This document shows positions 8,558 through 26,456 of a stretch of DNA of 64,000 nt, piece after piece. Origin of the DNA: a virus (lineage: Duplodnaviria > Heunggongvirae > Uroviricota > Caudoviricetes); IMG/VR virus record IMGVR_UViG_3300026549_000047, positions 52,158 through 116,157 of that record; one strand, written 5' to 3'. Position 1 is the first letter of the stretch. Every line of letters starts with the position of its first letter. A program made the position numbers and the translations under genes. A model generated the notes under the pieces. The model had not been told where the DNA came from. It searched no databases and was given only the letters and a program-made list of their open reading frames with translations.

Positions 8558-9081
8558 AGAGTAGACATTATCTGTTTATAGTTTGCCATCAGCCATTGGA
8601 AAGCAGCAAAGGAGTGTTTACAAAGGAGAGTTACTCCTCTCTTTCCTTTAGGTTCCTCAGTCATGGCTTGACCTAAGGTACCTCTAATCCACTCGTTCTT
8701 AAAGAGTGAATCGCGCTTATCCAAGAGATATGCACTTCGATACATAAAATCCGCACAGTCACAGTAAATTTTAACGCGATTCTCTGCCCAATCAGTCAGG
8801 GAGAAATCTGGGTCAATTTGAATATAGATATAGTGCGTATTTCCAGTATCTGATGTCACGGCCAGTTTAAGGGTTATATAAAATACTTTGAGAGTATTCT
8901 TCGTAAATAGATTCTTAAACTTACTAAGTGGCGTTTCTTCTTTCAGGGTATAGAATGTATCATCTAGACGAACAGCACATTTGGCAGCTCGATCTTGTCT
9001 ACCCTGATCAACCTTCATAAGTTCACCTAATGTATAGGGTTTCCCGAGTATATTATCAAGTAGTCCAGCCATATCTCTCAA
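8554..9081 (-). CDS. hypothetical protein
   Basis: 175 aa ORF, 4-nt overlap coupling with neighbours. Confidence 0.5.
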   Translation of the reverse strand: MRDMAGLLDNILGKPYTLGELMKVDQGRQDRAAKCAVRLDDTFYTLKEETPLSKFKNLFTKNTLKVFYITLKLAVTSDTGNTHYIYIQIDPDFSLTDWAENRVKIYCDCADFMYRSAYLLDKRDSLFKNEWIRGTLGQAMTEEPKGKRGVTLLCKHSFAAFQWLMANYKQIMSTL

Positions 9082-9308
9082 TGAATTTGGTTAATGTCGA
9101 CGAGAGGTTTAACATTTCCCGTCAAAGTTATCACTTGATTTTTATTTTTAATCCATAGCCCTGCAAAAGATGGGGCAGATTTATCTCTACCATTTCCACT
9201 ATATAGGGGTTCTATCTCGGATTTAGGAATAAAGATATTATCCTTAAAGAGGCGTTCTGTCTCGGGGTCAAACTTATAGACTCCAGCCTTACTTACTATC
9301 TCTATCAT
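9078..9308 (-). CDS. hypothetical protein
   Basis: 76 aa ORF, translationally coupled (ATGA overlaps) on both sides. Confidence 0.4.
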   Translation of the reverse strand: MIEIVSKAGVYKFDPETERLFKDNIFIPKSEIEPLYSGNGRDKSAPSFAGLWIKNKNQVITLTGNVKPLVDINQIH

Positions 9309-10357
9309 CGCTCACAATACATTTTTTGGTCAAATCTACTCATGAACGTCATAAAGAAGGAGTCACTAATGTTTGTAATTCCATACTTATCCAAGAACTT
9401 ATGCCAGTCTTGGAGTGAACCTAAGCGACCACAGATAGGGAGATATTCAAGAATCAGTCTTTTGGCTTCCTCAAATCTTGGGTACTTGGCTACGTCATAT
9501 GTACTAAGCTGTTTATCGAAAAGTTCACGATTTTCTACATCCGAGTAATCCCCAGATAAGATATGATCAATGGCTGTATCGTAATTAACTCCATCCTTCT
9601 TTGATGTTCTCATACCATTATGACTATTTCCTAGTGCGTTCTGATATGCACCATACGCATAAAGACTTAATCTTCCTTTCAGGTTGTCGGGAATATTATT
9701 ATAGACTTTATCATAGGTGACAATTTCTGCTTGTTGTCCGTATTTGGGGATCTTGAGTTTATCCATTTTTGGAGTCAAGCAATAATCTATATCAGAGTCG
9801 TTTGTCACTAGGACACTTGGTTTTTCATTTTCACTATACAAGAGCATTGAAGCTAGGTAAGCCAAGTTATCGTATTCCCAACCGGGGACACTAATGGAAG
9901 GTATTCCGAAAGAATTCATATTTCTAACGAATCCCCACTTAGCATCAAACCTTACTTCGTTTTTATAGAGTTTTTCATAAGCTAATTCCAGGTCCTCTTG
10001 AGAGGTATCTGGGTCTGCTTTCATGGCCTCGTATTTATCTCGGGTCATGTATCCTTTTAGGGGATCTCCTTTTCCTTTTTCCCCTTCTATATCACCACGA
10101 TCGTCTTTATAAGCTCCCTCAAGGATTTGTGTGGTGACATATCCTTTATCTCCATCCCATTTATCTAGGAATAGTACATACTTGTCTGCACTTATTCCAT
10201 AGTCTCTGGGAATTTTATTCATCGTGTAAATGCAAGTTCGCATAAGCTCCGCTGCCGTGTATTCTCCAGGTTTTTTATCTTTCGATACACCGAAAAGATT
10301 CTTCTGGAGGATGACTGAGAAGTCTATGATTGCATATGCATATTTAGTACTTAACAT
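9305..10357 (-). CDS. T4 RNase H-like 5'-3' exonuclease / flap endonuclease (PIN/FEN)
   Basis: YAIIDFSVILQ..., YVLFLDKWDGDKGY...RGD and LVTNDSDIDYC parallel the T4 rnh blocks ICLIDFSQIAL / IVLCIDNAKSGYWRR / IISSDGDFTQL. Confidence 0.6.
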   Translation of the reverse strand: MLSTKYAYAIIDFSVILQKNLFGVSKDKKPGEYTAAELMRTCIYTMNKIPRDYGISADKYVLFLDKWDGDKGYVTTQILEGAYKDDRGDIEGEKGKGDPLKGYMTRDKYEAMKADPDTSQEDLELAYEKLYKNEVRFDAKWGFVRNMNSFGIPSISVPGWEYDNLAYLASMLLYSENEKPSVLVTNDSDIDYCLTPKMDKLKIPKYGQQAEIVTYDKVYNNIPDNLKGRLSLYAYGAYQNALGNSHNGMRTSKKDGVNYDTAIDHILSGDYSDVENRELFDKQLSTYDVAKYPRFEEAKRLILEYLPICGRLGSLQDWHKFLDKYGITNISDSFFMTFMSRFDQKMYCER

Positions 10358-10432
10358 GTTCTCCTTTAAAGAATTAATAAAGGTAAGAGAGTGAGTCTCT
10401 AGAGCTCTTGTTCTCTTACCTGAGTTGAATCG

Positions 10433-11746
10433 TTAGAAAGGCAGTCCATTAGCACCACCGCCAAAGCCTCCTGCGAAAGAGGGCTGTGAGAAAGGTGCAC
10501 TCTGGGGCTGAGCAGCCTGCTGTGCCGTACCTGCAACGGGTGCTCCCGTCAAGGGATCAATGTGTGATGCGGCGGGATTCTGGAATGGATTGTCGTTACG
10601 ATCAGCAACGGTCTGACCATTCTGAACTACATTATTGTTGCCGTATCCACCTACACCCTGTGCTGATGGTGCAGCCTGCACATTCATCTGAGCCAAGATA
10701 GGATCATTTGTCTGTGGGGTTGCAGCAGCTTTAGCAGCCTGGTTAGCGAGAGCGGTCTGATTGGTAGCCTGGATAGCTTCCTCAACAGAAGTTCCGTTCT
10801 GCTTAGCCATACGAATCTTAGCCAACTGGTCGGTCATGAATTCAATGGCCTCCTGAATGAGAGACTTATTGAATAGACGACGCTGATCAGCAGGTACAGA
10901 TTCGTCCTCACGATTAGCCTGCCAGCCAAGGAATGTTTCAACTGGATTCTGCATCAACTCCATGTCACTGGGGTCAATACTAATACCGTTCAGGAATGCT
11001 TCTGCTCCGAGTGTGTGACTAACCGAGATATTAAATCCGGGGCCATCGCTCTTGCTAATATTAAGAAGCATGAATCCTTTACGACCTGTCAGTTCGCGGT
11101 TGTACACATCAGCCAGCCATGCATCGTTACCAATGCCAGAGGTGATGTTAGTGTCAGCAATGCTATTACCAACAATCTCAGGGAACGCTTTACTCGTCAT
11201 CACAAACAGAGCATTAAAGTTCTGACGGACAGGAGTACGAGTATCCTGAACTGACCAGAAGTTAGGACAGTTACCGTAGAACACGGTATAGTTCTTACGA
11301 CGGATCAGACTACGAACAGTAGGATCAGTTGCATTGTTCTTGGCATCGAGCTCTGTAAAGAGTTCCTCCCAGACAGCATAAGCCTGACGCAAAAGTGACT
11401 CATCGGAAGCCGTCAATGACGAAACCTCACGACCTGTCGTCTGGTCTTTGATGGTATAGGCCTGCAGAGGCAAGAACTTAATCCAAGCCTGATAATTCTG
11501 CTCCTGACCATCGGCCGTTACATTACGACGAGGCATGCTAATCTCACGTGTATTAGCCAGACTCACATAAGGGAATCCACTAATTACGGAAGGGATTGGC
11601 AGAATCTGATAACGACCCATGTTAGTTGGGGCCGACAGATATACACGCTCAATCATTCTCTTTTTCTCGAAATTGCGCTTCTTATTAGAAGGGCTCAAAC
11701 TCTGTAATTTCTCCAAAAAGCTGTCTACATTACTAAACTGATTCAT
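10433..11746 (-). CDS. ssDNA-binding protein, T4 gp32-like (tentative)
   Basis: QNYQAWIKFLPLQ resembles gp32 GNGQAVIRFLPSK. Long Gln/Ala/Gly-rich C-terminal tail ends ...GGANGLPF, reminiscent of SSB C-terminal tips. It sits beside the replication genes. Confidence 0.45.
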   Translation of the reverse strand: MNQFSNVDSFLEKLQSLSPSNKKRNFEKKRMIERVYLSAPTNMGRYQILPIPSVISGFPYVSLANTREISMPRRNVTADGQEQNYQAWIKFLPLQAYTIKDQTTGREVSSLTASDESLLRQAYAVWEELFTELDAKNNATDPTVRSLIRRKNYTVFYGNCPNFWSVQDTRTPVRQNFNALFVMTSKAFPEIVGNSIADTNITSGIGNDAWLADVYNRELTGRKGFMLLNISKSDGPGFNISVSHTLGAEAFLNGISIDPSDMELMQNPVETFLGWQANREDESVPADQRRLFNKSLIQEAIEFMTDQLAKIRMAKQNGTSVEEAIQATNQTALANQAAKAAATPQTNDPILAQMNVQAAPSAQGVGGYGNNNVVQNGQTVADRNDNPFQNPAASHIDPLTGAPVAGTAQQAAQPQSAPFSQPSFAGGFGGGANGLPF

Positions 11747-11950
11747 AAAAAATTGTTTGTTTTAAAATAAAGATAATTTTATTAAATAAATAATTCTTCT
11801 ATGAGGAGGCTCTTCACTTAATGTCCTCCTCGTGTATAAGAATTTCACTTTCCGTTGGAGCGCGTTTTTTACGTTTCAGAGAACCAGAAAACCCTATACG
11901 TGATATAAAGGGAACCGGGCGACCCAAAGAGCCCGGATAAGTATAATAAT

Positions 11951-14593
11951 ATGAGAAGAATAGTAATTATTGATCAAATTGAAACACCAAATTATTTAGC
12001 GTATTTTGGATGTGGACTAGGAAACGAGATCTATACTGTTCAGTATCTTCAGGAACTTGAAGAAGATAAACTAAAACAGGTACTAGCTCTCGGACCCGGA
12101 GATGCTGCCATGCTTGTTGGAGCAGAGCCTTTCCGGTATCTCAGACAGTTTTATCATTTCGGAATTCGTGGTGAGAACTACTTTGATTGTGCTAAACTTC
12201 ATCGTTTAAGTATAGAGGGTGGAGCGTACGTTAAAGAGATTATCGACTTTCCAGATCAGAAAACTATTGATGAATTCCTGTCCCCAGAGTTTACACGGAA
12301 AATTGATTTTCCAGGATTTAAGTATAAAGTCATTCATGACTGGGAGGGAGCACTTCGATTCTTAGATTGGTGTGATTCACTTCCCCTAGATACGGACTTT
12401 GGATTTGACTATGAGGCATCTGGTATGCCTATGGAGAAGGTCTTTGCTGTGTCGGGGTATGCTATTTCTACTGAGAAGTATGCGGGGTTTGTTAGCTTGA
12501 CAGACATACGGCATCAAGTGGGAGAAGATAGTAAGGAGTATCGAGAAGTTTTGGATAGAACAGCTAAACTTCTAGTCAAAAGACAAAAACATATGTGGAC
12601 CTATAACCTTCAGTATGAGTATCAGGTAAGTCATAGACTTTTAGGAGTTGATCTATACGATTTATGTGATGCATCTGTGGTTAATGTCCTTGATGGAAAT
12701 CACGAGAAGCACTTCTCTCTCAAATTTACTGCCCAGTTTGTCTTGGGAGTTGATGTTTGGGATTCTGATTTCGATCGTCTTAGTGAACTTATCGAGCACA
12801 TGATTTTGGAGGAGGTTGGTAAACTTAAGAGAGATAAACATTTCGTCGTTAAGATTACTCCCGATACCTTTGAGAATACTCCCGAGTGGGAAGAGATTTG
12901 TGCTAGATATCCTGAATATGTAGATGAATTTAGAGCATTGATTCTTGAGTATTGGGGCAATCAGTTTATGCCTATCCCAAGTGAGATTCTCGGTAAATAC
13001 TGTTGTCTTGACTCTTTCTATACCCTGATGATCTACCTTAAGAAGAAGCCAGAGTATACACAAGAAGCTTTCGAAGTATTTATGGATAACCTTCGACTGG
13101 GTGCTCGTTTGATGAGCCATGGTCATTATATTGATGAGAATTATCGCTTGAAATATGATAAGTATTGTCGACAAATGATGGCTTGGTCGATTACATGGAA
13201 TACGAGAGCTCTTTGTTGGTTGAAGATGGAGAAGCATAAAGCTAAGGCTACAAATATAAAGAGATATAAAGACATTGCCATTAAGCTCCTAGAGGAAGGT
13301 AATTTCTTCCAGGGCAATTCCGTTGAGATTGTTAAGTACCTTTTAAGTACTAATATCGATACTATGGACACCACTGAAACCGGCTTAAATGAAGGTCAGA
13401 TTAAGATGAAGTATGGTGAGAAATTCGCCGATCAATTCGTTCAGCTGGTCAAAGATGCTATGGTTGAGGTGAAAATGAAAGGCAAGATTGATGAAGGAAT
13501 TGTCAGGAAGAAAAAGATTCTTGGAGTTTTAGCGGAAAATGCTAAACACTTGTTAGGTCTAGATCAACTTAAGTACGATGACAATGGAAAGATCAATTCC
13601 AAGCACATTGAGCTTGAGAAGTATATGTACTACAAAAAAGTTTATGAAGAGCTTGAGAGAATAAATAATAGACAGCTTAAGGATGTTAATAATATCCCTG
13701 ACACTATCTATATCTTTGGACAGAAGATGGAAATCTTAGAGTATGCAAACTACTTGCAAGATAATTATTTCCAGTGTCTTAGCCCAGAGAAAAACGATAA
13801 AATTGTCTATGATATGATGATGAATCAACAGCTTCCCGGTCTTCGTGCTAAGACAGCCTTCTTAGGTGCCATTCTTGAAAGTACCCAGCAGCTACCAGAA
13901 ACAGATAAGTTTTATAGTAGCAGAAACATAACTGACATTAATGTTGGTTTTGCCGAGATGATGAAGGAGTGGGAGACCTACTGGAAGAACGTAGATAGCG
14001 ACGGCATGATCCATTGGCATAGTTCTTTATATCCAGACAAGGTGTTTAACATCGCTATGGAACTATATCGTAGTCCTAAAACAAGTTCAAAAGTTTCAAC
14101 AAAGGGCGTTAAAGCGACTCTTTATGAAGTAGTTGACAAGGTAAAAGATATATGGACTGATTTTGCTGGATTTAATTGCCAGACACAGTTCTTCCCCGAA
14201 TATGCAAAGGATTATGAGAACTATGAGAGTCCATTTGATCCGATTCTGGACTTGAGTGATGAATTCTACTTCATGAGAAAGTTCACTATAAACTATCTAG
14301 TTTTCAAAAAGCATGCTAAGATGTTGTCAGTGTATGCTGGAGAAGACGGTATGTTTAATAAGAGGGCTAAGTATGTAATCGAAGATGAACACCACATTCC
14401 GATTCGAGATGCGGATCCTGATGAGCCAGGAGCAGTGAAGAAAAACTTTACTCCATACGAAGTGCTTATGAAGTCATCAAAGCGCTGGAGCTCAAGCTTC
14501 CACACGATTATCAGTCATGGAGATATAAAGAACTGTCTTGTACCTGCCCCAAGCTGGGATGAAAATGGAGACATCGTATATGGAGGCGCTGAT
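11951..14593 (+). CDS. DNA polymerase, family A: exon 1 (3'-5' exo domain to motif A ...GDIVYGGAD)
   Basis: The 895 aa ORF has an Exo I-like DFGFDYEASG block. It ends ...CLVPAPSWDENGDIVYGGAD(Q), aligning to the Pol I AF.AP....L.SADYSQIELR block just before motif A. The track's tail LLTYFDINKTSVT is predicted intron read-through. Confidence 0.75.
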
Positions 14594-16163
14594 CAGTTAC
14601 TGACATATTTTGACATTAATAAAACTAGTGTCACGTAGAAGTGATTCTATGTTAAAACAAACTTACTATATGCTGGAAAGACTTGTTAGGTCTCTGGTAC
14701 TAGTCGATTTAGTCACGACAGTAATAATCCAGAGAATAGAGTTAATCAGCAGGTTTAAGAAAAAGAAGAAATTAAAATAATATTAATTACGAAGAAATAT
14801 ATTATGGGAGCACTAGAGGATTTTGAAAAATTTTTGAAGGAGTCTGATATTAAGTCTCGTATAGACCTAAGTAAAAGATTTCCTTCAGTATATGATAGAT
14901 TCCTATTACTAGACGAGGAGTTTAAAGATAAGCTCTTACCATCTTTGGTAGTGCCAATAATATTGAGTGGCATAGATGAGTACAGTAATTTTATAAAAGA
15001 TCATAATATTACTACTAGAACCCAATTTTATAAAAGTTTTCCCAATGTATATAAAAGATTCATTAAAGACTTTAGTAAAGAAGACCAAGATAGGCTTCTT
15101 CCTAAACTAAAGAATACTTATGGTGATGAATCAGGTACTTATAGTTATTTGGAAAAATTTATTGAGGAAAATGATATAAAAAGTAGAACAGAATTTAGTA
15201 GTAGATGTGATGCACTTTATAAAAAATTCTTAAAATTACCAAAAAATGAACAAGAAGAACTGCTTTCTCAAAGCAAGTTTTCTGGAATAAAAGATTTTGA
15301 GAGTTTTAGTCAGTTTATAATAGATAATAACATTATTTCCAGGAAAGATTTTGATAAAAGATTTTCTAGATTGTATATGAAATTTTTAGAGATATTTTCA
15401 CCGGAGGAACAAGAAAGTTTACTACCTTCAAGTAGAGAAGATTTGTCTAGTCTTGTTGATTATTCTGGATTTTCTGATTTTATAAATAAAAATAATATAT
15501 TATCTAGGCGGGATTTTCAAAACAAATCAACTGCTGGATATCATAGGTTTAAGACCATGCTTAGTGAAGAAGAGCAAGATCTATTACTACCTATTTGTCA
15601 TTCGTCCGTTGGAGAATTATTTCTTATGGATTTATTCAATAAAAATGGATTTAAATTTTGTATACAAAAAGTATTTCAAGACTTATTCGGAAAAGGTAGT
15701 AGACCATTAAGGTATGATTTTTATTTACCGGAGTATAATATTTTGGTTGAATATCACGGTCGTCAACATTTTGATCTGGATGATAATTTTTACAATGAAG
15801 ATGCTATACTCAGGGATAAGGTGAAATTTGAATATGCAAAATTAAATAACATCTCTATACTCTATTTTACAAATGAGGTAGAGGTATATAATAAGTTTGG
15901 ATATTTCACCGAGGTTATAACTGATAGTGATATCCTTATAGAGAAAATAAAAGAGATTGGTCTGACTAACCAATTGAATTCTTAAACCCCAACGACTATC
16001 CCAATAGTGGGAGTACACTTGAAATCGTTAAGTGGAAACGGTAAGAATCTCATCTCTGAGATTAAGATATAGTCTGATCTGTATGGAGACATACAGGAGT
16101 TCGTCTTAGTTTAGATTAAGTGAGAACCGGGAGAAGTAACGTACCTCTTGAACACAAATGTAG
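14594..16163 (+). mobile_element. group I intron 1 of DNA polymerase gene (about 1.57 kb), carries a homing-endonuclease ORF
   Basis: Interrupts motif A. The ORF 14804..15985 overlaps the P3-P6 region. R element CCAACGACTATCCC at 15989-16002 and S element AAGATATAGTCTGA at 16065-16078. Downstream exon resumes ...SSAEVKAAGYASGD. Exact splice sites ambiguous: 5' at 14593 or 14598, 3' at 16158-16163. Confidence 0.6.
14804..15985 (+). CDS. intron-encoded homing endonuclease candidate: five tandem ~50-aa helical repeats + C-terminal DUF559/Vsr-like PD-(D/E)xK nuclease domain
   Basis: Five repeats of the pattern DIKSR.DFSKRF...Y.KFL....EEQ..LLPS. C-terminus RYDFYLPEYNILVEYHGRQHFDLDD...RDK matches the DUF559 (E.DG..H...D..RD) restriction-endonuclease-like motif. 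Confidence 0.65.
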   Translation: MGALEDFEKFLKESDIKSRIDLSKRFPSVYDRFLLLDEEFKDKLLPSLVVPIILSGIDEYSNFIKDHNITTRTQFYKSFPNVYKRFIKDFSKEDQDRLLPKLKNTYGDESGTYSYLEKFIEENDIKSRTEFSSRCDALYKKFLKLPKNEQEELLSQSKFSGIKDFESFSQFIIDNNIISRKDFDKRFSRLYMKFLEIFSPEEQESLLPSSREDLSSLVDYSGFSDFINKNNILSRRDFQNKSTAGYHRFKTMLSEEEQDLLLPICHSSVGELFLMDLFNKNGFKFCIQKVFQDLFGKGSRPLRYDFYLPEYNILVEYHGRQHFDLDDNFYNEDAILRDKVKFEYAKLNNISILYFTNEVEVYNKFGYFTEVITDSDILIEKIKEIGLTNQLNS

Positions 16164-16337
16164 TAGTGCGGAAGTAAAGGCAGCTGGGTATGCAAGTGGA
16201 GATCCTGACTTAATTTCGCGCTTCAATGATGGAACTGATATTTACATATACAGTGCAAAACTCTACCTTGGTGATGAAGGATGGGGGAAGTTAACTAAAA
16301 AACAACAAAAAACCTGGCGCAAACGTTTCAAGACCAT
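16164..16337 (+). CDS. DNA polymerase family A: exon 2 (motif A remainder to first half of motif B)
   Basis: Translation ...SSAEVKAAGYASGDPDLISRFNDGTDIYIYSAKLYLGDEGWGKLTKKQQKTWRKRFKTI aligns with Taq/E. coli Pol I YSQIELRxxAHLSGDENLIxxFxxGxDIHxxTAxxxFG...RRxAKxINF. Confidence 0.6.
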
Positions 16338-16622
16338 ATGTTGATGTGGCATAGTTAAGTAATTAACTAGTGAAAAGGTTGTGAACTCGTAAATACGAGG
16401 TGTGCTAAAAAAATAGTGCTAACGGTGGAAAGCTAAGTTCCTAAAAAATTAGGAATATGCCAATACCGTGCTAAGCTTGGAGTTAATCCGAGAAAGTGTA
16501 ACGACTATCCCTTCATGGGAGTAGGTTTAGGGTGAAATTCCCTATTCCGAAGTGCAACCTATCCGCAATAGTACGGATAATGATATAGTCTAATCCCAGA
16601 AAGAAATGATGGGTAGTAAATG
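16338..16622 (+). mobile_element. group I intron 2 of DNA polymerase gene (285 nt, ORF-less)
   Basis: Splits motif B: exon 2 ...RKRFKTI | FLGVLYG exon 3. Intron follows a U at 16337 and ends with G at 16622. Length 285 is divisible by 3, consistent with both exons sharing a genomic frame. R GTAACGACTATCCC (16503-16516), S GATATAGTCTAAT (16589-16601), then a P9 hairpin ATCCCAgaaagaaatgaTGGGTA. Confidence 0.7.
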
Positions 16623-17025
16623 ATTCTTGGGCGTTTTATATGGCCTAGGTAAGCAAAGCCTTGCGGAAAGACTTGATGCTTCTGTTGAAGAGGCAGAGGA
16701 TATTATACAAGGTCTTTATAAATCTTTCCCACAGCTCAGACATTACGTGGATTCACAGGGACAATATCCTCTAGATCACGATGGATATATTAGAACAATG
16801 TTAGGAGATAAACTTAGACTGAGAGAGTACTATGATTATCTTCCTAAAGCAAAAAATGATAGAGAAAAGAATAACTTAATTGCTCGTATTAAACGACTTG
16901 GTGTGAATCTTCCTATACAAGGAGGTACAAGCACTATAATGGCTCATGGATTTGATAATAATATTCGTGTGTCTATTAAGGAGGGATGGAGTCAGCCGTT
17001 ACAGCCAATTATAACGGTTCATGAT
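16623..17025 (+). CDS. DNA polymerase family A: exon 3 (motif B GVLYG ... PIQGG ... motif C VHD)
   Basis: FLGVLYGLGKQSLAERLDASVEEAEDIIQGLYKSFPQLRHYV...NLPIQGGTSTIMAHG...IITVHD matches Pol I NFGVLYG...FP....Y...A.N.PIQG.AAD....HDE. The ORF track starts at an internal TTG. Confidence 0.7.
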
Positions 17026-17152
17026 CAGATTAGGTCATGTAATTAAGAAGAATTGCTGGAATCTTAATAAGAAATCAGCAAACATAATTAATGTTTCAAT
17101 GACTGTGTATTTTAGCAAGAAGATACAGTCTGCCCTCAAGTTGAGGCTTGAG
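17026..17152 (+). mobile_element. group I mini-intron 3 of DNA polymerase gene (about 127 nt), inserted in motif C between HD and E
   Basis: Exon 3' end CAUGAU pairs perfectly with intron IGS GUCAUG (17033-17038), including the U.G at the splice site. P element AAUUGCUGGAAUC (17050-62), Q AAAUCAGCAAAC (17075-86). R UUCAAUGACUGUGUAU (17094-109) pairs with S AAGAUACAGUCUG (17122-134), a P7 covariation GACUGU/ACAGUC. P9 hairpin CCUCAAguUGAGG. Intron ends at G17152, so the spliced reading is ...ITVHD|ENTSNTNLIPVEH, restoring HDE and a LVFEVH-like strand. Confidence 0.7.
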
Positions 17153-17551
17153 GAAAATACGTCTAATACAAATCTCATCCCTGTTGAGCATATTTTTGAT
17201 ATACTTGCTTTCTATCAGAAGAATTATACGGATTATTGTGCTCAATGTGGACCTAAAATTCGTCTACTATTTGACTTGCTTGTAGGATTTGGTTATGAAT
17301 CAGCATGTCCTCTTAAGCAGATAGATGAAAATACGATAGAATTTTCAGGTCCTGCATCTAATATAATCTTAATTTACGATAAAATCATGAAGTGTAAGCA
17401 CATAAAGGTTGAGTGTAATAAGACTAGAGAAGAGATTATGGATTCTAGAAAGATGATCACTGATCCATATTATAGAACTATTCTCGAAAGTGGATGTTCT
17501 ATAGAAAAGGATACTTCTGATATCAAGGTTCAGTTCCATAAATTAAGCTAA
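17153..17551 (+). CDS. DNA polymerase family A: exon 4 (C-terminal ~130 aa after motif C)
   Basis: ENTSNTNLIPVEHIFDILAFYQKNY...KIRLLFDLLVGFGYESA aligns with Pol I ELVFEVHKDDVDAVAKQIHQLMEN...LDVPLLVEVGSGENW, with matching spacing. The ORF track's 17021..17551 has a spurious N-terminus made of intron sequence. Confidence 0.65.
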   Translation, partial: ENTSNTNLIPVEHIFDILAFYQKNYTDYCAQCGPKIRLLFDLLVGFGYESACPLKQIDENTIEFSGPASNIILIYDKIMKCKHIKVECNKTREEIMDSRKMITDPYYRTILESGCSIEKDTSDIKVQFHKLS

Positions 17552-17552
17552 A

Positions 17553-17612
17553 TTTATAGTCTCTGTTGTAATAGTTAAAATTACTATTATATGGAGACTA
17601 TTATTTTTTAAA
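17553..17612 (+). terminator. hairpin terminator candidate after DNA polymerase gene
   Basis: 8-bp stem TATAGTCTC...GAGACTATA with an internal GTAATagttaaaATTAC hairpin, followed by TTATTTTTTAAATATTT. Confidence 0.35.
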
Positions 17613-17623
17613 TATTTAAAATT

Positions 17624-18886
17624 ATGTTATATTTAGACTGTTGGAAATCTATGAAATATTATCGAAAAGATCAAGGAATGTTAGAAGATATTTCAGAAGT
17701 AGAGATATCTATTTCTGGAAAATTTAGAATAAAAAGAAGTAAACGAGATATTTCTGTCTATGATATTGGTCAAGGATATCCGGGCATTCTTTTGATCCGA
17801 GATGGTAGAGTTTCTAGATATCGTGCTCATGTAGCTATGATATCCTCTTTCGGTAGTTATGATTTTTCTAAATCGGGTTTAGTTGTAGATCATATAAATC
17901 GAAATATATGTGACTATAGATTATGTAATCTTCGATTAGTTACTGTCACTGAAAATAATAAGAATAGAGTTGTATTTAGAAAGAGCAGAGCATATATACT
18001 AGTTAATAGTAATGGGGATATAATAAAATCTGCTACTTTTCCAAACGAAGGGTCGAAGTTATATACCACTTTAAATAGGTTTAGGGAGAATAGGAAAGAT
18101 TATCTAGTAATCTCTTTATCAGAAGACTGTTTTTCGAAAATAAAAAATGTGAATAATATAAGCTATTTATTAAATCAAACTTGGAAAAAAGTAGGAACAA
18201 GCAATTTATACGTTGGGGAGAATGGTCTTCTGAAAATGAGTACGAACTTTGGACTCTATTTATCTTTCGGATCTATAAATAAAAATGGTTATTATGTGTT
18301 CAATAATAGGACTGCCAGGAAAGACAATTCTCAGTACGTTCACATACTAGTAGCTAAATATTTCCTTAATAGCGGTCAACCAATCGATAGTAAAAAGTTC
18401 TCCGTAGACCATATAGATACTAATAAAGAGAATAATAATTACCATAATCTTAGAATAGTATCATTAAAGGATAATATTAATAATCAGAATACTAAGATAA
18501 AACAAGAAAGATCTATTTCTATTAATTATCTAGGAGAAATTTATAAAATTCGAAGTGTTTTGGAGTTCTCAAAAATGACAGGACATAGTAGATCATCCAT
18601 AATGAAATGGATTTCAGATGGGATTAATATGAGAGGTCCTGCTGAAATTTTAGAAATTAAATACATTAGTAAAGAAGAAAAGTATGATGCGTTTAATAAT
18701 AATGAATTTATAGATGATATAAATTTTTTAAAATTTACTAGTATGGAAGATCTGAAAAGTATTAGATCTATAAACGAATTTATTAAAGAAAACAAGATAC
18801 GTGATATGTCTTTATTAAAAATTCAACTCCTGAATCAAATAAAGGATCTCGGTCTGTTAGATAGTATAAAATTATATTCCGAATAA
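17624..18886 (+). CDS. free-standing HNH homing endonuclease with two HNH-like motifs
   Basis: GYPGILLIRDGRVSRYRAHVAMISSF...VVDHINRNICDYRLCNLRLVTVTENNKN is a classic phage HNH pattern. A second motif is FSVDHIDTNKENNNYHNLRIVSLKDN. HTH-like MTGHSRSSIMKWI. Located immediately downstream of the intron-rich polymerase gene. The real start may be the Met near 17678. Confidence 0.7.
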   Translation: MLYLDCWKSMKYYRKDQGMLEDISEVEISISGKFRIKRSKRDISVYDIGQGYPGILLIRDGRVSRYRAHVAMISSFGSYDFSKSGLVVDHINRNICDYRLCNLRLVTVTENNKNRVVFRKSRAYILVNSNGDIIKSATFPNEGSKLYTTLNRFRENRKDYLVISLSEDCFSKIKNVNNISYLLNQTWKKVGTSNLYVGENGLLKMSTNFGLYLSFGSINKNGYYVFNNRTARKDNSQYVHILVAKYFLNSGQPIDSKKFSVDHIDTNKENNNYHNLRIVSLKDNINNQNTKIKQERSISINYLGEIYKIRSVLEFSKMTGHSRSSIMKWISDGINMRGPAEILEIKYISKEEKYDAFNNNEFIDDINFLKFTSMEDLKSIRSINEFIKENKIRDMSLLKIQLLNQIKDLGLLDSIKLYSE

Positions 18887-18904
18887 AAAAAATTAGAGAA
18901 AGGG

Positions 18905-18937
18905 ACTTCGTGTCCCAATCTCTTTTTATTTAATCCC
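18905..18937. terminator. bidirectional rho-independent terminator
   Basis: GGGACttcgtGTCCC hairpin followed by AATCTCTTTTTATTT on the plus strand, with an A-run preceding it for the convergent minus-strand gene. Confidence 0.5.
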
Positions 18938-19639
18938 CTTCAGCTTTTTCACTGTTTCCTCGTCTAGGAAATGTCCCATGCCATACGTGCTTTTGATCGG
19001 CTTCTGCTTTGGTTTTTTCTCCTTGGCAGGTAGACCGGTATCCTCACGTGTTTTGGCACGGATTATCCAGGCTATATCCTTTTCCTTCTCTTCACCACGA
19101 ATGCAGTCAGAGACGAACAGACTTAGCGCCCATTCAGCGGCATTGCTTAGGAGTTTCTCACTAGTGGCGCTGCAATAAGCTGTTGTACCAGTTCGTACTT
19201 CAATAGGCATTTTGTTGAGGAGTTTGTTGATTCGTTTCTTCTCCTCCTTAGTCCTCTCCTTCCGACCAGCCTCGGTCATTGCCTTGTCTACTAATGCTTC
19301 TTCTGCTTTTACCTCGTCGTGTGACTTGATAATGTTATTAGCACCAGCCACTCTGATGTTAAGAATACAGCATCGGTTTATATTGTTCTTAACCTGCTCC
19401 TCTGTGAAAGAGGCTACCAATGTCCCGGTATTGATGGGCAGGAAACCGCGAATGAGGTGTTTTACAAACTCACGTGAACCATCGGTTTTGTTCCAGAGTT
19501 CACAGATTTTCTGATATGCTTTGTTAATCTGATCCTCGTTCGGCTGTCCAAGTTTCTGGGGATGATCTTTTGTGTAGAGCTTAATTGGAGTTTTCTCATT
19601 TTGCTCTTTAAGTTTCTGTACTAATTCCGAATTGTTCAT
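18926..19639 (-). CDS. hypothetical protein
   Basis: 237 aa ORF; Lys/Glu-rich; no recognisable catalytic motif. Confidence 0.5.
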   Translation of the reverse strand: MNNSELVQKLKEQNEKTPIKLYTKDHPQKLGQPNEDQINKAYQKICELWNKTDGSREFVKHLIRGFLPINTGTLVASFTEEQVKNNINRCCILNIRVAGANNIIKSHDEVKAEEALVDKAMTEAGRKERTKEEKKRINKLLNKMPIEVRTGTTAYCSATSEKLLSNAAEWALSLFVSDCIRGEEKEKDIAWIIRAKTREDTGLPAKEKKPKQKPIKSTYGMGHFLDEETVKKLKGIK

Positions 19640-19703
19640 GATGTTTTATGAGTTTAATGTTATCAAGTATAAGGAAAAGAGCGTAACCACCTTATAGGTA
19701 GAT

Positions 19704-20258
19704 ATGATAGAAAGAAAATTAATTATTGGATTAGGAAATCCAGAAGAAGAAAGAAAAGAAACCAGGCATAATATTGGCTGGATGTGTATTGATAAGTTAG
19801 TAGGGGACGGTCAGTATATAGAAAAAGAGTATGGCTTAGTCTTTGAAACCCCTGAAGCCATTTATCTTAAGCCAACAGTTGGTATGAATTCTAGCGGTGA
19901 GGCTGTCAAGGCTGCTATGACTGAATATGAGATTGAAGCTAAAGATATTCTTGTGATCGTTGATGACCTTGACCTAGATTTTGGTCGCCTCAGATTAAAA
20001 GGAAAAGGCAGCACTAGACATAATGGCTTAAAGAGTATTGAGGAATGTATTGGCACTCAGAAATATGATCGCCTGAAGTTTGGAATAGGTCACGATTTTC
20101 CGGAAGGTGGACAATTTGATTATGTCCTTTCACCATTCACAGAAAATGAAGTTGCTCAACTCCCATACCTCATTGAGAGGGTGTCGGATGGAATTAAGAA
20201 CCACTACTTAGTGGAACCAAACAAGGACAAAGTAATGAACGTGATTAATAATGGATAA
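19704..20258 (+). CDS. pth: peptidyl-tRNA hydrolase (Pth family)
   Basis: LIIGLGNPEEERKETRHNIGWMCIDKL matches the Pth N-terminal signature LIVGLGNPGxxYxxTRHNxG. GSTRHNGLKSI matches GHNGL(K/R)SI. Correct length of 184 aa. Confidence 0.8.
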   Translation: MIERKLIIGLGNPEEERKETRHNIGWMCIDKLVGDGQYIEKEYGLVFETPEAIYLKPTVGMNSSGEAVKAAMTEYEIEAKDILVIVDDLDLDFGRLRLKGKGSTRHNGLKSIEECIGTQKYDRLKFGIGHDFPEGGQFDYVLSPFTENEVAQLPYLIERVSDGIKNHYLVEPNKDKVMNVINNG

Positions 20259-20526
20259 AGAGCTCTTAGAAAAATTACACGAAAACGGAAGTATGTTTCT
20301 ACTGCTTGTCTCGCTCATTTCGTCAGATACATTGACTGACTTAGAGGCATGTGAGGAATCAAAGAAGACAACAGAGGAGATTCTTTCCGTTTTACCAGAG
20401 GTTAATATTCCTGAAGAAGATAAAAAGAAATATGAAGATTATTTGAAGCGGGGACTTGAGATAATAGAAAGAGATGGAAAAGAGTTTAAAAGCTGTAGTA
20501 GTAAGAACAAAAGAAAGAAAACTTGA
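20251..20526 (+). CDS. hypothetical protein
   Basis: 91 aa ORF, 8-nt overlap with pth. Confidence 0.35.
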   Translation: MDKELLEKLHENGSMFLLLVSLISSDTLTDLEACEESKKTTEEILSVLPEVNIPEEDKKKYEDYLKRGLEIIERDGKEFKSCSSKNKRKKT

Positions 20527-20815
20527 ACTTAGGATAGGGTATGTCTTCTATCATAGAGACTTCCTTAATTCTGGTGAAACTTGTTTAGGAGGAACTAGGT
20601 GGAATATAGATGAAGAGAATAAAGAGGTTATTTTCTACGGCTTCTCCGACGACTTTGGCCAAATGCCTTCCGACGGGTGGGAATCTTTGGTGAAAGATTT
20701 TAAAGCAGACTGGTTAAACTCTTGGCATCTAGAGAGAATCCTCAAGAATGTTTTAAAAGTGGAGGATACAGATATTAACAATTATAAATTTAAGTATGGC
20801 GACAAAACAGCTTAG
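20474..20815 (+). CDS. hypothetical protein
   Basis: 113 aa ORF in operon context. Confidence 0.4.
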   Translation: MEKSLKAVVVRTKERKLELRIGYVFYHRDFLNSGETCLGGTRWNIDEENKEVIFYGFSDDFGQMPSDGWESLVKDFKADWLNSWHLERILKNVLKVEDTDINNYKFKYGDKTA

Positions 20816-21389
20816 AGCAGTTTACTTCGAGAGTATTAATGGAAGTTTTCTCAGGATGGGGTGGACAGAGTATGATAGAAATCTCTTAACCCCAGATGAT
20901 GGAGAGATCTGGAATGTTATGGCCTCTACCTGGTTCGTTGATACTAGTAGTAGGAGGATAATATTCAATGGACAATCTAATGAGTTTAAAGATCTTGAGA
21001 TTAAGCAGGAGAATATTAGTAACTGGAATGAGGCCGTCGATAGATTCAAGTGGTCTCAGGACAGACTTGATATTCAAGTTGTTTTATCGGTTGAGTTTGG
21101 CATGAGGAATGTGCCCATCGAAGAATATAACTTTGCTGCTCCAGTAAAAAGTTATCATCCTATTGAGAACTTTCATAATTTTAGGGTAGGCCAATTGAAA
21201 GAGATGCTTAGTAGTATATCAGATGATGACTTTATTATGGTTCAGGCTGATTCTCACTCAGGTAACTCTTACCCAATAGCGCACATTGAGGATAGTACTT
21301 CAATAGGATTCTGGGAACTTAGGTTTGACTCAAGCCGAGATTTCTGGAATACCCTGAATGAATATAAGAACAGTGGAAAGAAGGTGTGA
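20796..21389 (+). CDS. hypothetical protein
   Basis: 197 aa ORF in operon context. Confidence 0.45.
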   Translation: MATKQLRAVYFESINGSFLRMGWTEYDRNLLTPDDGEIWNVMASTWFVDTSSRRIIFNGQSNEFKDLEIKQENISNWNEAVDRFKWSQDRLDIQVVLSVEFGMRNVPIEEYNFAAPVKSYHPIENFHNFRVGQLKEMLSSISDDDFIMVQADSHSGNSYPIAHIEDSTSIGFWELRFDSSRDFWNTLNEYKNSGKKV

Positions 21390-22251: not shown

Positions 22252-22343
22252 AAGGGTAATCTCTTTATTTTTTCCCTCTGAAACGTAAAAAACGCGTTCA
22301 GGAAAGGGTATAATTCTTAAGCAATGAAGAAAAATAATACATC

Positions 22344-22414
22344 GCGGAGTGGAGAAGCTGGTATCTCGTCAGCCTCATAAGCTGAAGATCGTGGGATCGT
22401 GACCCACCTCCGCA
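22344..22414 (+). tRNA. tRNA-Met or tRNA-Ile2 candidate, anticodon CAT
   Basis: Cloverleaf: acceptor GCGGAG/CTCCGC; D stem GAGA/TCTC with GG in the loop; anticodon stem TCAGC/GCTGA with loop C-U-CAU-AA; 5-nt variable loop; T stem GTGGG/CCCAC. The T-loop ATCGTGA is non-canonical (A54...T58). Confidence 0.45.
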
Positions 22415-22472
22415 ACTATAAAAGAGATGATAACAATTTGTTAATAATTAACTTAAATTTTAAAAAGAAAGA

Positions 22473-23504
22473 ATGAGAAAATTTATTTTGACAATGGCTC
22501 TGATTCTTGGAATTGGAGTAAGTGCTAACGCACAGAAGATTGCTACAGAGAATAGTAATGCCTTTGATAACATCGGTATTGGCCTGACAGGCGGTGTATC
22601 GACTCCCTTGGATTTCAATTCTATGTTTCCGGTTAACCCGAACATAGGTTTGAAGATTACGAAGGACTTTACTCCTGCTTTCGGTATTCAGATCGAAGGT
22701 CTTGCATTCCTTAATGACAATCATTTCACGGACCTCAAGACGACTGTTAAGGCAACTAATGTAAGCTTGCTTGGTGCAATTAATTTGTCTAATGCCTTGT
22801 TTGGTTATAAAGGTACCCCCAGAACATTTGAGGTATCTCCTGTGGCTGGTATTGGTTGGCTGCATGAGTGGAATACGTCGGTTAATAGCTTATCTAGTAA
22901 GACTGGTATTGACTTTGCATTTAACCTGGGCAAGGCTAAGGCACATTCTATTGTTCTGACTCCAGCTATTTACTGGAATCTTAATAGCCTTAAAGAGATT
23001 CAGTTTAATAAAAATCATGCGCAGTTGGCACTTAATCTTACTTACATCTATCACTTTAAAACATCAAATGGTACTCATCATTTCAAAACCTATGACATTA
23101 GTGCCATGGAAAGTGAGATTAATTACTTGAGAGGTCGTGTAGATGAGTTAGAGAATAAACCTATTCCTGTTGCAACAAATGCAGTGGCTGCAGTAGAGAC
23201 CAAGACTGTTGAAAAAGTTGTTCCGGCTGAGTCTCAGTGGTATATTCAATTTGCTAAGAGCAGTTCTGCACTGACTGACGAGGCTAAAGAGGTTCTTGAC
23301 AAGGTTTCAGCAGAGGCAGTGGATATTGTAGGTACAGCATCTCCCGAAGGTTCAGCCGAATTCAATCAGGCATTATCGGAGAAGCGTGCTGCAGTTGTAG
23401 CAGACTACTTGACGAAGCGTGGTATAAAGGTGAATAGTTGGGTTGGTAAGGGTTCAACTGGAGACTCTTCTAATCGTTTGGCTATCATTAGCGTAGTTAA
23501 GTAA
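22473..23504 (+). CDS. OmpA-family outer-membrane protein (signal peptide + beta-barrel-like region + OmpA C-terminal peptidoglycan-binding domain)
   Basis: Signal MRKFILTMALILGIGVSANAQ. C-terminus VDIVGTASPEGSAEFNQALSEKRAAVVADYLTKRGI carries the OmpA-C-like TD.G....N..LS..RA..V motif. Confidence 0.75.
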   Translation: MRKFILTMALILGIGVSANAQKIATENSNAFDNIGIGLTGGVSTPLDFNSMFPVNPNIGLKITKDFTPAFGIQIEGLAFLNDNHFTDLKTTVKATNVSLLGAINLSNALFGYKGTPRTFEVSPVAGIGWLHEWNTSVNSLSSKTGIDFAFNLGKAKAHSIVLTPAIYWNLNSLKEIQFNKNHAQLALNLTYIYHFKTSNGTHHFKTYDISAMESEINYLRGRVDELENKPIPVATNAVAAVETKTVEKVVPAESQWYIQFAKSSSALTDEAKEVLDKVSAEAVDIVGTASPEGSAEFNQALSEKRAAVVADYLTKRGIKVNSWVGKGSTGDSSNRLAIISVVK

Positions 23505-23750
23505 TAAAAAGATTTGTGGAAGGTGACTAGTCGGTAGTTACTTAAAAGGTTCGAATCCTCCTTCCACAGCAAAAAAGCTGGAAATGAGGTGTTCCTAGCT
23601 ATATGAGAGAGGGCAACGGGGTAAAATATTGGACTATAATGCTAGCAATAGTCTCCTTAAGCTGACAAATTTGTTTTCATGGTTTTAGGGTTGTGGTCAA
23701 CCTAAGGATAAAACAATAGACAACCTCTCCAAAATAAAAACCCCGTTTAT

Positions 23751-23822
23751 GGACCGGTAGCTCAGTGGTAGAGCGGATGTTTGAAGGGCATCGCGTCGGT
23801 GGTTCAATTCCATCTCGGTCCA
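23751..23822 (+). tRNA. tRNA-Phe (GAA)
   Basis: Canonical cloverleaf: acceptor GGACCGG/TCGGTCC; D arm GCTCAGTGGTAGAGC; anticodon loop TT-GAA-GG; T arm GGTGGTTCAATTCCATC; discriminator A. Confidence 0.85.
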
Positions 23823-23828
23823 CGAGTT

Positions 23829-25613
23829 ATGAAGAAGCTTATTTTATTTGTAACTTCTTTTGCTTTAATGATGTCCTGTATGAGTCACGACCTCGATACA
23901 ACACAGGGGCAAGGAAGTGATGTGAAAGAGAACGTTAAAAATATTTTTGGCGTTGAGTTTAGTGAGAACCAAGATTGGAAGACAGCTTTTTCTAGCAGTG
24001 TAAGTGTTCGAGTTAATCCTGGTGATGGTGTCAATAAAATTCAAATTATGGCACTTATCAAAGAGGATGACGAGAACCAATGTCTTAAAGTTCTCAACGA
24101 ATTTAACTTAACCAGAGAGACCTTTGTTAAGCTAAATTATGATGCTCCTAAGGATAACTTAGGTTTGTACGTTACATATATAACTTCTTCTGGATCTTAC
24201 CATTTCGTAGAGATCAAGGGAGATGAGGTTAGTATGCCCTCAAAGACTAGGAGATTGACAAGATCGTTTAACCCTAGTGGATATAATTTGCCGACAGGAG
24301 ATTTCTTTATTACATCCTCTGAGGAATCTTATGCCAATAAACGTGGCTGGGTTCCTGGTGAAATGCTTTATCAGTATTCCACTCAGAAAATGGATGCTGA
24401 AGAATATGATGATGAGTATAAAGAAACCCTTCGACTCTTAGTATTCTCTTATTTTAAGAACGGTAGAAAGTATAATAACCTTCCACTTGTTAAGCAGACT
24501 GGATATTACAATGAGAAAATCTATCCTATCACAACGGGAGATGATCCGATTGTATTATCACCAGTCTACAAGAATGATGGTGGTTATCAGGAGGTTGAAA
24601 ATTCTGACTTGTACTACTATTACTTTAAAGAAGAGGACCTAGGAAGTGATCCAGTTGGTTATATTGAGAGTCTTCCTAAATACAAAGCCATTCAATTGAA
24701 TGAATGTATTAAAGGAGATGATGTAATTAGTAAACATGCTTCCTACGCACTTATGTATTGGGGAGACGGTGTTCCTGTAGTAGGTGAGACTCAAGGATCT
24801 TTTCAGTTCCCGAAGGGGTACAAGATCGGTTTCATGATTCGAGCTAAAACGGAAGCAGAAGGAAAAAAGAAGCAGGGTGAACTTTATGGTGATGGTCGCC
24901 TTAATAATCATGTTAATAACTATGGAAACTTCAAGTCATCTAAGCTTGGCGAGGATGGTCCTAGAATGGCATGGTTAACGGTAAACAATAAAATGCTTCT
25001 TTGTTGTGAATCAGGAACAGACACAGATTTCAATGATATTATCTTTGAAGTAGAGGGAGGTATTGAAGGACTTATCGTCATCCCTGAGATCGAATCTAAT
25101 TTCTACGTATTCTGTTATGAAGACCAGAGATTAGGTGATTATGATCTTAATGATGTAGTTTTGAAAGGACGAAGACTTAGTGACACGAAAGTAGAGTATA
25201 CACTTATGGCTTGTGGTGCTTTGGATGAGCTCTTTATCTATAATGTAGAGGGCAAGCGAATAAAGCATGACAAGGAAGTACATTCTATATTTGGTAGAAC
25301 AAAGCCAGAATTCGTTAATACCCTTAAGAATGATAACACCCCATTCGTAGTTGATACAATTACAGTGACTAGTAGTTTCAGTTTTCTTAATGCTGATACT
25401 CAACCTTACCTGTACGACAAAACTAAGAATTGGGAAGTTCGAATAGCAAGAGAGGGACAAGATCCTCATGCTATTATGATCCCCTACGACTTTAAGTGGC
25501 CCTTAGAAAGAATTTGTATTAATAGAGCTTACTTGAAGTTTAATGAATGGGGAACAGGTTTAGTTACCTCTACGGATTGGTATAAATATCCGGAGGAAGA
25601 CAAAGTATGGTGA
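23829..25613 (+). CDS. putative lipoprotein (large, secreted)
   Basis: ATG at 23829 gives MKKLILFVTSFALMMSC, a lipobox with Cys. About 595 aa; no catalytic motif recognised. The ORF track start at 23781 overlaps tRNA-Phe and is unlikely. Confidence 0.6.
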   Translation: MKKLILFVTSFALMMSCMSHDLDTTQGQGSDVKENVKNIFGVEFSENQDWKTAFSSSVSVRVNPGDGVNKIQIMALIKEDDENQCLKVLNEFNLTRETFVKLNYDAPKDNLGLYVTYITSSGSYHFVEIKGDEVSMPSKTRRLTRSFNPSGYNLPTGDFFITSSEESYANKRGWVPGEMLYQYSTQKMDAEEYDDEYKETLRLLVFSYFKNGRKYNNLPLVKQTGYYNEKIYPITTGDDPIVLSPVYKNDGGYQEVENSDLYYYYFKEEDLGSDPVGYIESLPKYKAIQLNECIKGDDVISKHASYALMYWGDGVPVVGETQGSFQFPKGYKIGFMIRAKTEAEGKKKQGELYGDGRLNNHVNNYGNFKSSKLGEDGPRMAWLTVNNKMLLCCESGTDTDFNDIIFEVEGGIEGLIVIPEIESNFYVFCYEDQRLGDYDLNDVVLKGRRLSDTKVEYTLMACGALDELFIYNVEGKRIKHDKEVHSIFGRTKPEFVNTLKNDNTPFVVDTITVTSSFSFLNADTQPYLYDKTKNWEVRIAREGQDPHAIMIPYDFKWPLERICINRAYLKFNEWGTGLVTSTDWYKYPEEDKVW

Positions 25614-25684
25614 AAATAAAATTGGGTTCATATAAAGTTATTATAATTCCAAACCAGATACCCAACTGTTAGGGAATTATTTAA

Positions 25685-25757
25685 GCCTTCTTAATTCAAT
25701 TGGTAGAATTTCTGATTTGTAATCAGATCGTTATTGGTTCGAGCCCAATAGAAGGCT
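25685..25757 (+). tRNA. tRNA-Thr (TGT)
   Basis: Acceptor GCCTTCT/AGAAGGC (7 bp perfect); D arm ATTCAATTGGTAGAAT; anticodon stem TCTGA/TCAGA with loop TT-TGT-AA; T arm ATTGGTTCGAGCCCAAT. Confidence 0.85.
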
Positions 25758-25759
25758 CT

Positions 25760-26230: not shown

Positions 26231-26456
26231 TCTTGAAAACTATTCGTACGGTGAAACGTATTGGGATCGACACCTACTCTCTCCGCCGCGAACATTTGTT
26301 TCGCTCTGACTTTAATAATAACAATGAAAAGAATGAAGTTTAAGAAACAGAAATGGTAGACTAGTAGTGGAATACGTTCCCCAGGAAGCCAGAGTCAGTG
26401 TTTATTTGCGAGAGATTATGTGATGAGAATTAAATTACAAACCTTTAAAATTAATA

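Follow-up and report, generated by a model that had tools for sequence, protein, structure and literature searches.

A putative two-part homing endonuclease with a helical repeat array and a Vsr-like nuclease domain, whose gene lies inside a group I intron of a phage DNA polymerase gene

We analysed a stretch of 64,000 nucleotides from a Caudoviricetes virus (IMG/VR record IMGVR_UViG_3300026549_000047, positions 52,158 to 116,157), referred to here as the window, and within it an open reading frame (ORF) at 14804..15985 on the plus strand. In the ORF listing this gene starts with ATG and encodes 393 amino acids, and its product combines five tandem helical repeats with a C-terminal Vsr-like nuclease domain. 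The same architecture was found in about 70 metagenomic homologues. The gene interrupts a family-A DNA polymerase gene of the same strand, whose first exon (11951..14616, read as an ORF) ends ...TAT TTT GAC AT in motif A (YFDI). The exon is followed by a 1544-nt insert, intron 1 (14617..16160, plus strand), which carries the endonuclease ORF in a peripheral loop and which has the features of a group I intron, as described below.

An earlier note on this DNA, made from the sequence alone, had claimed five tandem repeats in front of the nuclease. By eye and with a hidden Markov model (HMM), the unit motif reads xEDFxxFIxxNNIxSRxDFxxRFxxxYxxFxxxLxxEEQxxLLP. The repeat HMM was built from other family members alone, the query and its three closest relatives being excluded, and it still recognized exactly five units of about 55 amino acids (residues 5-46, 57-100, 114-154, 165-208 and 222-263) with 51 to 57 bits each. 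In contrast, when the N-terminal 268 residues were shuffled 200 times, no shuffle scored above 8.9 bits, thus indicating that the five repeats are real. Delimited by the HMM matches together with four helices per unit in the AlphaFold2 (AF2) model, the repeats are encoded on the plus strand at 14813..14944 (residues 4-47), 14972..15106 (residues 57-101), 15140..15271 (residues 113-156), 15296..15430 (residues 165-209) and 15461..15595 (residues 220-264).

The remaining 129 residues (265-393; 15596..15982, plus strand) constitute the Vsr-like nuclease domain, which was delimited by AF2, Foldseek, invariant alignment columns and a match to PHROG 9084. The AF2 model of this domain, calculated from an alignment of 37 diverse homologues (alignment A1), reached a mean predicted local distance difference test score (pLDDT) of 94.6 and a predicted template modelling score (pTM) of 0.88. 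A Foldseek search of the Protein Data Bank (PDB) with this model returned E. coli Vsr first (1vsr and 1cw0; probability 1.00, template modelling score 0.53 to 0.62), followed by AbaSI and PvuRts1I, each through its Vsr-like N-terminal domain, and by the restriction-like endonuclease domain of an R2 retrotransposon. Structure prediction thus gives a nuclease fold for the C-terminal domain, and the earlier description of a Vsr-like enzyme is correct at the level of the fold. The DUF559 label that came with it has to be dropped, since Pfam (E<=0.1) and NCBIfam assigned no family to the 393-aa protein and only 2 of the 37 family members reached PF04480 (DUF559), at E>=0.1. The profile of alignment A1 gave a weak alignment over the catalytic D...E/H region of AbaSI among PDB sequences, and I-Bth0305I (3R3P) was not in the top 50 Foldseek matches of the domain.

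Ten positions were invariant in the 37-sequence alignment, namely, G6, E7, R39, D41, E52, G55, H58, F59, D74 and K77 in domain numbering. Judged from this conservation, the catalytic set likely comprises E271, D305, E316, H322, D338 and K341 of the full protein. The pattern of E271, D305, H322 and D338 agrees with the E...D...H...D set of Vsr and I-Bth0305I, the equivalence to Vsr residues being drawn from the residue pattern and not from superposition, and the D-to-H spacing of 17 residues equals that of I-Bth0305I (D196 and H213; PMC3239194). Residues ~252-362 matched three PHROGs families, 9084 ("homing endonuclease"), 4538 and 559, with E values of about 1e-17 down to 5e-18 (1.4e-17 for 9084). 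Among cultured phages, tblastn with the nuclease domain retrieved 366 records, mostly of Twort-like Staphylococcus phages. One of the relatives, Terranova gp079 (AXY83962.1; 41% identity over the nuclease domain by BLASTP, E=1e-19), is annotated as a "group I intron-associated VSR homing endonuclease" and lies within an intron of the terminase large-subunit (terL) gene. The nuclease domain and its homing context are of an already known kind.

Removal of 14617..16160 joins ...TAT TTT GAC AT to T AGT AGT GCG GAA GTA AAG, and the joined product, Y-F-D-I-S-S-A-E-V-K, shows the motif-A pattern D-x-S-x-x-E-x-(R/K). As read from the sequence, U is the final base of exon 1 and G that of the insert. 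Composites from which the ORF had been deleted, taken from the window and six related loci (n=7), were folded with RNAalifold. In the consensus, the final base of the exon took part, at the 5' splice site, in a U.G pair of a P1 helix in 7/7 loci, a P7 helix (GACUA/UAGUC) formed along with several hairpins, and compensatory changes occurred in 22 of the 94 pairs. The endonuclease ORF occupies the loop between the 5' helices and P7, its stop codon lying 8 nt before P7. With its P1 U.G pair, P7 helix, terminal G and covariation-supported helices, intron 1 appears to be a group I intron; RF00028 cannot score it, because the 1.2-kb ORF splits it. We also observed that the DNA encoding the conserved C-terminal tail of the protein (...KIKEIGLTNQ; window 15930..15985, compared with L005, L008 and L010) is conserved even where the ORF stops earlier, suggesting an overlapping constraint from the intron RNA structure.

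The fetched loci (L numbers) were all scanned with two HMMs, one for the repeat and one for the nuclease. One of them, L054, from a 161-kb metagenomic contig, is ~90% identical to window positions 9000..21000 over 12 kb and is without exactly four segments, 14617..16160, 16338..16622, 17026..17161 and 17542..18881. Since L054 aligns without the inserted segments, the intron boundaries are fixed, and its uninterrupted junction reads ...GATCAGTTACTGACGTATTTTGATATTAGTAGTGCTGAAGTAAAGGCAGCGGGATATGC.... A pattern search of metagenome contigs recovered the uninterrupted junction at 54 loci, L054 among them, including some from rumen and human gut samples. Conversely, seven family members, whose repeats number 2, 3, 5, 5, 6, 8 and 9 and whose contigs measure up to 389 kb, all lie directly after a polymerase exon 1 of 860 to 889 amino acids, and an identical 5' splice site, TATTTTGACAT followed by TAA, was found in eight loci, that is, these seven and that of the window. 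As the intron is absent from L054, the element is probably able to move; its presence in one of two close relatives and absence from the other is what a homing element would lead one to expect. The earlier suggestion of a homing endonuclease is strengthened by the position of the ORF within a group I intron of a polymerase gene and by the existence of intron-less alleles. The phage that carries it appears to be a large (jumbo-size) one of gut or rumen. No match turned up when the locus was compared by Megablast with 50,697 phage genomes, and IMG/VR scans with the polymerase peptides and the intron-less junction pattern found nothing.

Looking at the positions of the family, it occupies at least three, namely, the motif-A intron, a motif-C intron and a free-standing site after the polymerase stop codon. 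A gene of the same architecture lies in a motif-C intron of L003 (5737-6762), and free-standing copies just past the polymerase stop codon are present in L001, L002, L003 and L047. L006 (~7040), L008 (~6380), L010 (~6075), L028, L032, L036, L038 and L064 carry further introns downstream of the motif-A site, at distances of 18 nt (after GAGGTNAAA) and about 30 nt (after GCAGCTGGGT). At least three insertion points thus fall within about 30 bp, which makes the motif-A region a hot spot of invasion.

Downstream of intron 1, the polymerase gene of the window (plus strand throughout) is interrupted twice more. Exon 2 (16161..16337) is contiguous with L054 and matches Pfam DNA_pol_A at E=0.022, under the Pfam cut-off. 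It is followed in motif B, between KTI and FLGVLYG, by group I intron 2 (16338..16622; 285 nt, no ORF), which is absent from L054 and whose removal restores K-T-I-F-L-G-V-L-Y-G. In a 361-nt scan, RF00028 aligned full length to intron 2 with 36.9 bits (E=4.8e-8; the gathering score is 50), while a 4.8-kb Rfam scan at E<=10 found no intron; ACGACUAUCC and GAUAUAGUCU are common to introns 1 and 2. Exon 3 (16623..17025; Pfam DNA_pol_A E=1.3e-14, L054 alignment) ends ...VHD in motif C and abuts a 136-nt insertion with group-I-like ends (17026..17161), again absent from L054. Left in place, this insertion in the VHD/S codons shifts the frame; the base before it is a U and its own last base is G. A possible P1-like pairing (CAUGAU/GUCAUG) is present, and it has GCUGGAA and GAUACAGUCUG in common with the larger introns. 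We rejected it as a standard group I intron, since it scored 8.9 bits in Rfam and is far below canonical size. Exon 4 (17162..17551), supported by the L054 alignment and by translation, runs to the stop codon.

We then considered the repeat module itself. The AF2 model of residues 1-268 had a pLDDT of 93.2 but a pTM of 0.48, with confidence dipping at the linkers, and each unit of ~55 amino acids was modelled as four short helices. From the model, the array resembles a string of beads and not a solenoid, the units being confidently folded and their mutual arrangement unfixed. A profile search of 1.84 billion representative proteins found the repeat in 341 clusters (E<=0.001). Among the best 150 of these 341, the majority of full-length proteins have the same nuclease domain as well, and the repeats are usually N-terminal, sometimes flanking the nuclease on both sides; in remoter relatives the unit ends ...GW(L/M) in place of EEQxxLLP. 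Ten repeat proteins without a match to the nuclease HMM were searched for other nuclease types and showed no Pfam domain. The representative search also returned P0095, a protein of 1360 amino acids with 12 to 19 helical repeats and no detectable nuclease or Pfam domain.

Comparison of the repeat region with Pfam, NCBIfam and PHROGs gave nothing usable. NUMOD1-4 matched neither the query nor any of 85 single repeats at E<=5, and no other Pfam family matched the query either, in agreement with the earlier remark that the repeats are not a standard NUMOD. The repeat profile retrieved only noise from the PDB sequences (SARAH domains at E>=0.12), and a Foldseek search of BFVD retrieved only uncharacterised viral proteins, at E>=0.003. 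A kinship of helices 1-2 with SAP/HeH/Ish1 was rejected, as 3 of 85 repeats reached Ish1, at E>=0.039. The helical repeat module is thus undescribed in Pfam, PHROGs, NCBIfam and PDB.

In the close family the number of units ranges from 2 to 9. The free-standing genes of L001 (6536..7381) and L002 (6536..7762) are identical except that two units are deleted in register from one of them (2 versus 4 units); polymorphism of copy number is thus seen directly in natural populations. Positional correspondence of units is kept among close relatives only. Across the family, the hydrophobic core of the unit (F, I, N, I, F, F, Y, F, L, L, L, P) shows low entropy and is conserved, and the most variable positions of the unit are 14, 17, 20, 24-26, 28, 31 and 33. 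In the eight-unit protein P0005, whose units share a mean DNA identity of 86%, the differences between units cluster at fixed positions (SR-xx-F-xx-RF-xx-GY-x-RF), the same ones that vary most family-wide, and pairwise comparison of the units gave 226 non-synonymous versus 75 synonymous differences. The variable stretch corresponds to helices 2-3, which have a mean net charge of +3.6 per unit, while helix 1 and helix 4 have -1.2 each. Variation focused at a few positions of similar units, as in transcription activator-like effectors (TALEs), was therefore found, but a fixed relation of unit order or number to the target was not, given the 2 to 9 units at one site and the lack of positional orthology. 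A simple target-length rule was rejected on account of the same 2 to 9 units at one homing site.

The helical array can also be replaced altogether. In L035 (2179..3225), at the post-polymerase position, a homologous nuclease with the same tail (DAEDTAQN) is preceded by zinc-ribbon repeats, three in number, where helical units would otherwise stand, and L051 (396..1157) carries a zinc-ribbon version in an intron beside the motif-A site, with the same nuclease lineage and C-terminal tail. Cultured phages have zinc-ribbon repeats of ~65 amino acids, three in Terranova gp079 and four in Lactococcus phage AM5 gp122, and the helical repeat HMM matched neither set. Since zinc-ribbon arrays are found on the same nuclease lineage, this lineage swaps its N-terminal array, and the sequences argue that helical and zinc-ribbon arrays do the same job.

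A close precedent is I-Bth0305I of the EDxHD family (3R3P; PMC3239194, PMC2677866), which binds DNA through its N-terminal region, has a Vsr-like nuclease at the C-terminus, leaves a footprint of ~60 bp and cleaves beside the insertion site (PMC3239194). Shared features are the Vsr-type fold, the conserved E, D, H and D, and a two-part layout, in which binding by the N-terminal region is, for our protein, an analogy. EDxHD genes lie in phage group I introns, between split-intein halves or free-standing, and the location of the focal gene fits this range. Our family differs in having an array of 2 to 9 four-helix modules of 55 amino acids where I-Bth0305I has two NUMOD/helix-turn-helix motifs, and in having an additional invariant Glu (E316) and Lys (K341). 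The Twort-like VSR homing endonucleases (Terranova gp079; PHROGs 9084, 4538 and 559) are intron-encoded, have all motif residues and likewise carry tandem repeats before the nuclease, although these are zinc ribbons rather than helical units. E. coli Vsr, PvuRts1I and AbaSI, whose nuclease domains are the best structural matches (Foldseek probability 0.99 to 1.00, template modelling score 0.5 to 0.6, 14 to 17% identity), belong to mismatch repair or to modification-dependent restriction, and their genes do not lie in introns; the focal domain is without an evident zinc site. TAL effector and zinc-finger arrays resemble the helical array in their tandem small modules, their copy-number variation and their variation at few surface positions. 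They differ from it in an unrelated fold and in forming a superhelix where we see flexible linkers, and DNA reading by the helical array is putative.

We consider it fairly probable that the ORF encodes a two-part homing endonuclease, in which a Vsr-like cutter is joined to a targeting half formed by the repeat array, within a group I intron of the polymerase gene. This reading is based on the anatomy and the polymorphism observed here, together with the precedent of I-Bth0305I (PMC3239194), and the mechanism that we propose is modelled on this enzyme and other bipartite phage homing enzymes. During co-infection, the Vsr-like domain would cut the intron-less polymerase allele near ...TATTTTGAYAT^TAGTAGTGC..., repair off the intron-bearing genome would copy the intron and its gene into the cut allele, and splicing of the intron would leave the polymerase intact. 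The five-module array would be the targeting part, the basic hypervariable helix 2-turn-helix 3 facing the DNA that flanks the cut site, and with its flexible linkers it may act as a string of small DNA-binding domains, not as a rigid solenoid. The anatomy, the fold, the conservation of the catalytic residues, the setting in an intron and the presence/absence polymorphism are observed here; that the enzyme cleaves, where it cuts, that the repeats bind DNA and that the intron splices are points that we infer by analogy.

Several observations weigh against this reading. Rfam at gathering thresholds returned tRNAs only, and no intron, from the whole window. Taken together, the N-terminal residues are acidic, with a pI of 5.5, and nucleases that are 87 to 95% identical carry 2, 4 or 8 units at one site, so that repeat number is not tied to target length. 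I-Bth0305I (3R3P) was not retrieved when the A1 profile was run against all PDB sequences at E<=10, and the 37-sequence profile thus detects no sequence similarity to it.

What the repeats do is the point on which other explanations diverge. The acidic N-terminal region is one reason to ask whether they bind nucleic acid at all. They could instead serve oligomerisation, protein-protein contacts or spacing, with the nuclease domain picking the target, and this would be in line with their lack of matches to DNA-binding folds, with the tolerance of very different copy numbers and with the finding that I-Bth0305I is most specific across the cleavage site itself (PMC3239194). However, the variable residues lie on a strongly basic face, the non-catalytic half binds DNA in the known bipartite phage homing enzymes (PMC3239194, PMC2677866), and a Vsr-like domain of 129 amino acids alone is unlikely to specify a unique site; we regard a role other than nucleic-acid binding as distinctly unlikely. 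The basic helical face would suit RNA as well as DNA, and the gene sits within a structured intron, so the repeats might bind RNA, and thereby either assist the intron to fold, in the manner of a maturase, or regulate expression of the enzyme itself. Yet free-standing members outside introns (L002, L003 and L047) have the same kind of array, zinc-ribbon arrays substitute for helical ones, and matches to PUF and PPR were at noise level, which together leave RNA binding quite improbable.

At the other extreme, the repeats could read DNA by a modular code, with TALE- or zinc-finger-like logic on a new fold and arrays rebuilt for new sites. The earlier note had compared them to programmable DNA-recognition modules; their programmability is hypothetical. 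The hypervariable basic face, the copy-number changes and the zinc-ribbon swap favour modular binding. A code would account for the concentration of P0005 unit differences (226 non-synonymous to 75 synonymous) at positions that vary family-wide, for the colonisation of at least three different positions and for the in-register gain and loss of units (L001 versus L002). It is difficult to reconcile with one homing site hosting arrays of 2 to 9 units, with units that have no positional orthology beyond close relatives and with an inter-unit geometry that is loose in the model (pTM 0.48, pLDDT 93), and no relation of unit sequence to target is derivable here. We therefore think it unlikely, if worth keeping in mind, that the 55-aa four-helix unit is a new class of tandem modular DNA-recognition repeat in which each unit reads a short DNA segment by way of hypervariable residues on its basic helix 2-turn-helix 3 face. 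If it were, fast gain, loss and substitution of units would let one nuclease lineage change target sites and track escaping targets, and a residue-to-base relation, should one exist, would offer a new scaffold for designed DNA binders. The same variation might, in turn, reflect relaxed constraint in a decaying or domesticated remnant that has lost homing. Across the P0005 repeats the overall ratio of non-synonymous to synonymous change is about neutral, and copy number drifts. Nevertheless, the ORFs are intact over about 70 clusters, the catalytic residues are invariant, the hydrophobic core of the repeat is conserved (entropy is low where the unit has F, I, N, Y, L or P) and close relatives differ in presence of the element, making decay very improbable.

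The proposed enzyme has a counterpart in jumbo phage PhiPA3, where an essential gene contains a group I intron with the homing endonuclease gp210 (PMC11620839). There the host gene is an RNA polymerase subunit gene, and the likeness is one of description. The PhiPA3 intron endonuclease acts in competition between co-infecting phages (PMC11620839), and by analogy the focal enzyme could be a weapon against co-infecting relatives. The invasion of the polymerase gene at several points within a few dozen bases bears on mobile-intron competition and phage-phage interference.

To our knowledge, the Vsr-like homing endonucleases are the least studied homing family, with one enzyme characterised and the structure of its DNA-binding half unknown. 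Our data suggest that a large branch of this family builds its putative targeting half from interchangeable arrays of small modules, either helical or zinc-ribbon, and that the helical module, although undescribed, is present in hundreds of protein clusters, in gut and rumen phages. The pattern of variation makes the repeat array a worthwhile experimental target. Since a natural series of 2, 4, 5, 8 and 9 units exists at one target site and the uncut target is known from intron-less relatives, the contribution of the array to site recognition is directly testable, and units that proved to be sequence-reading would be of interest for nuclease engineering.

The gene at 14804..15985 had been counted among seven endonuclease genes of the region, and five of the seven, including this one, are borne out. 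The double-HNH gene at 17624..18886 has two HNH_3 stretches (Pfam E=1.7e-17), the HNH genes at 33763..34530 and 36968..37873 match PHROG 655 ("homing endonuclease"; E=1.8e-38 and 1.9e-33), and the product of 43280..44248 combines a TnsA-like PD-(D/E)xK domain with NUMOD3. Two assignments found no support. The gene at 40616..41611 had nothing in Pfam, PHROGs or NCBIfam and no tblastn match in the phage genomes. For 44664..45230, described as T5orf172/GIY-YIG-like, the same three databases gave nothing, the T5orf172-like motif was seen by eye only, and tblastn against the phage genomes found one match, an unannotated hypothetical protein of Vibrio phage 150E35-1 (E=6e-7). A further fragment starting at 63594, also described as DUF559-like, has weak Vsr-like support (DUF559 E=0.027, PvuRts1I_N E=0.028).

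Relative to L054, the double-HNH_3 gene is a free-standing insertion (17542..18881) between the polymerase stop codon and the terminator, and in other relatives this spot is taken by genes for helical-repeat or zinc-ribbon Vsr-like endonucleases. At the C-terminus of its product, INEFIKENKIRD weakly resembles one helical repeat (6.7 bits). Between 33000 and 47600, on the minus strand, fragments of a multisubunit RNA polymerase (Rpb2_6 at 35523..36845 and Rpb1_2 at 45326..46471) are interleaved with the HNH and TnsA-like endonuclease genes, which fits a jumbo phage with heavily invaded essential genes. Finally, seven tRNA genes (Met, Phe, Thr, Leu twice, Gln and Cys) lie on the plus strand at 22343..28246, two of them adjoining or overlapping long ORFs.

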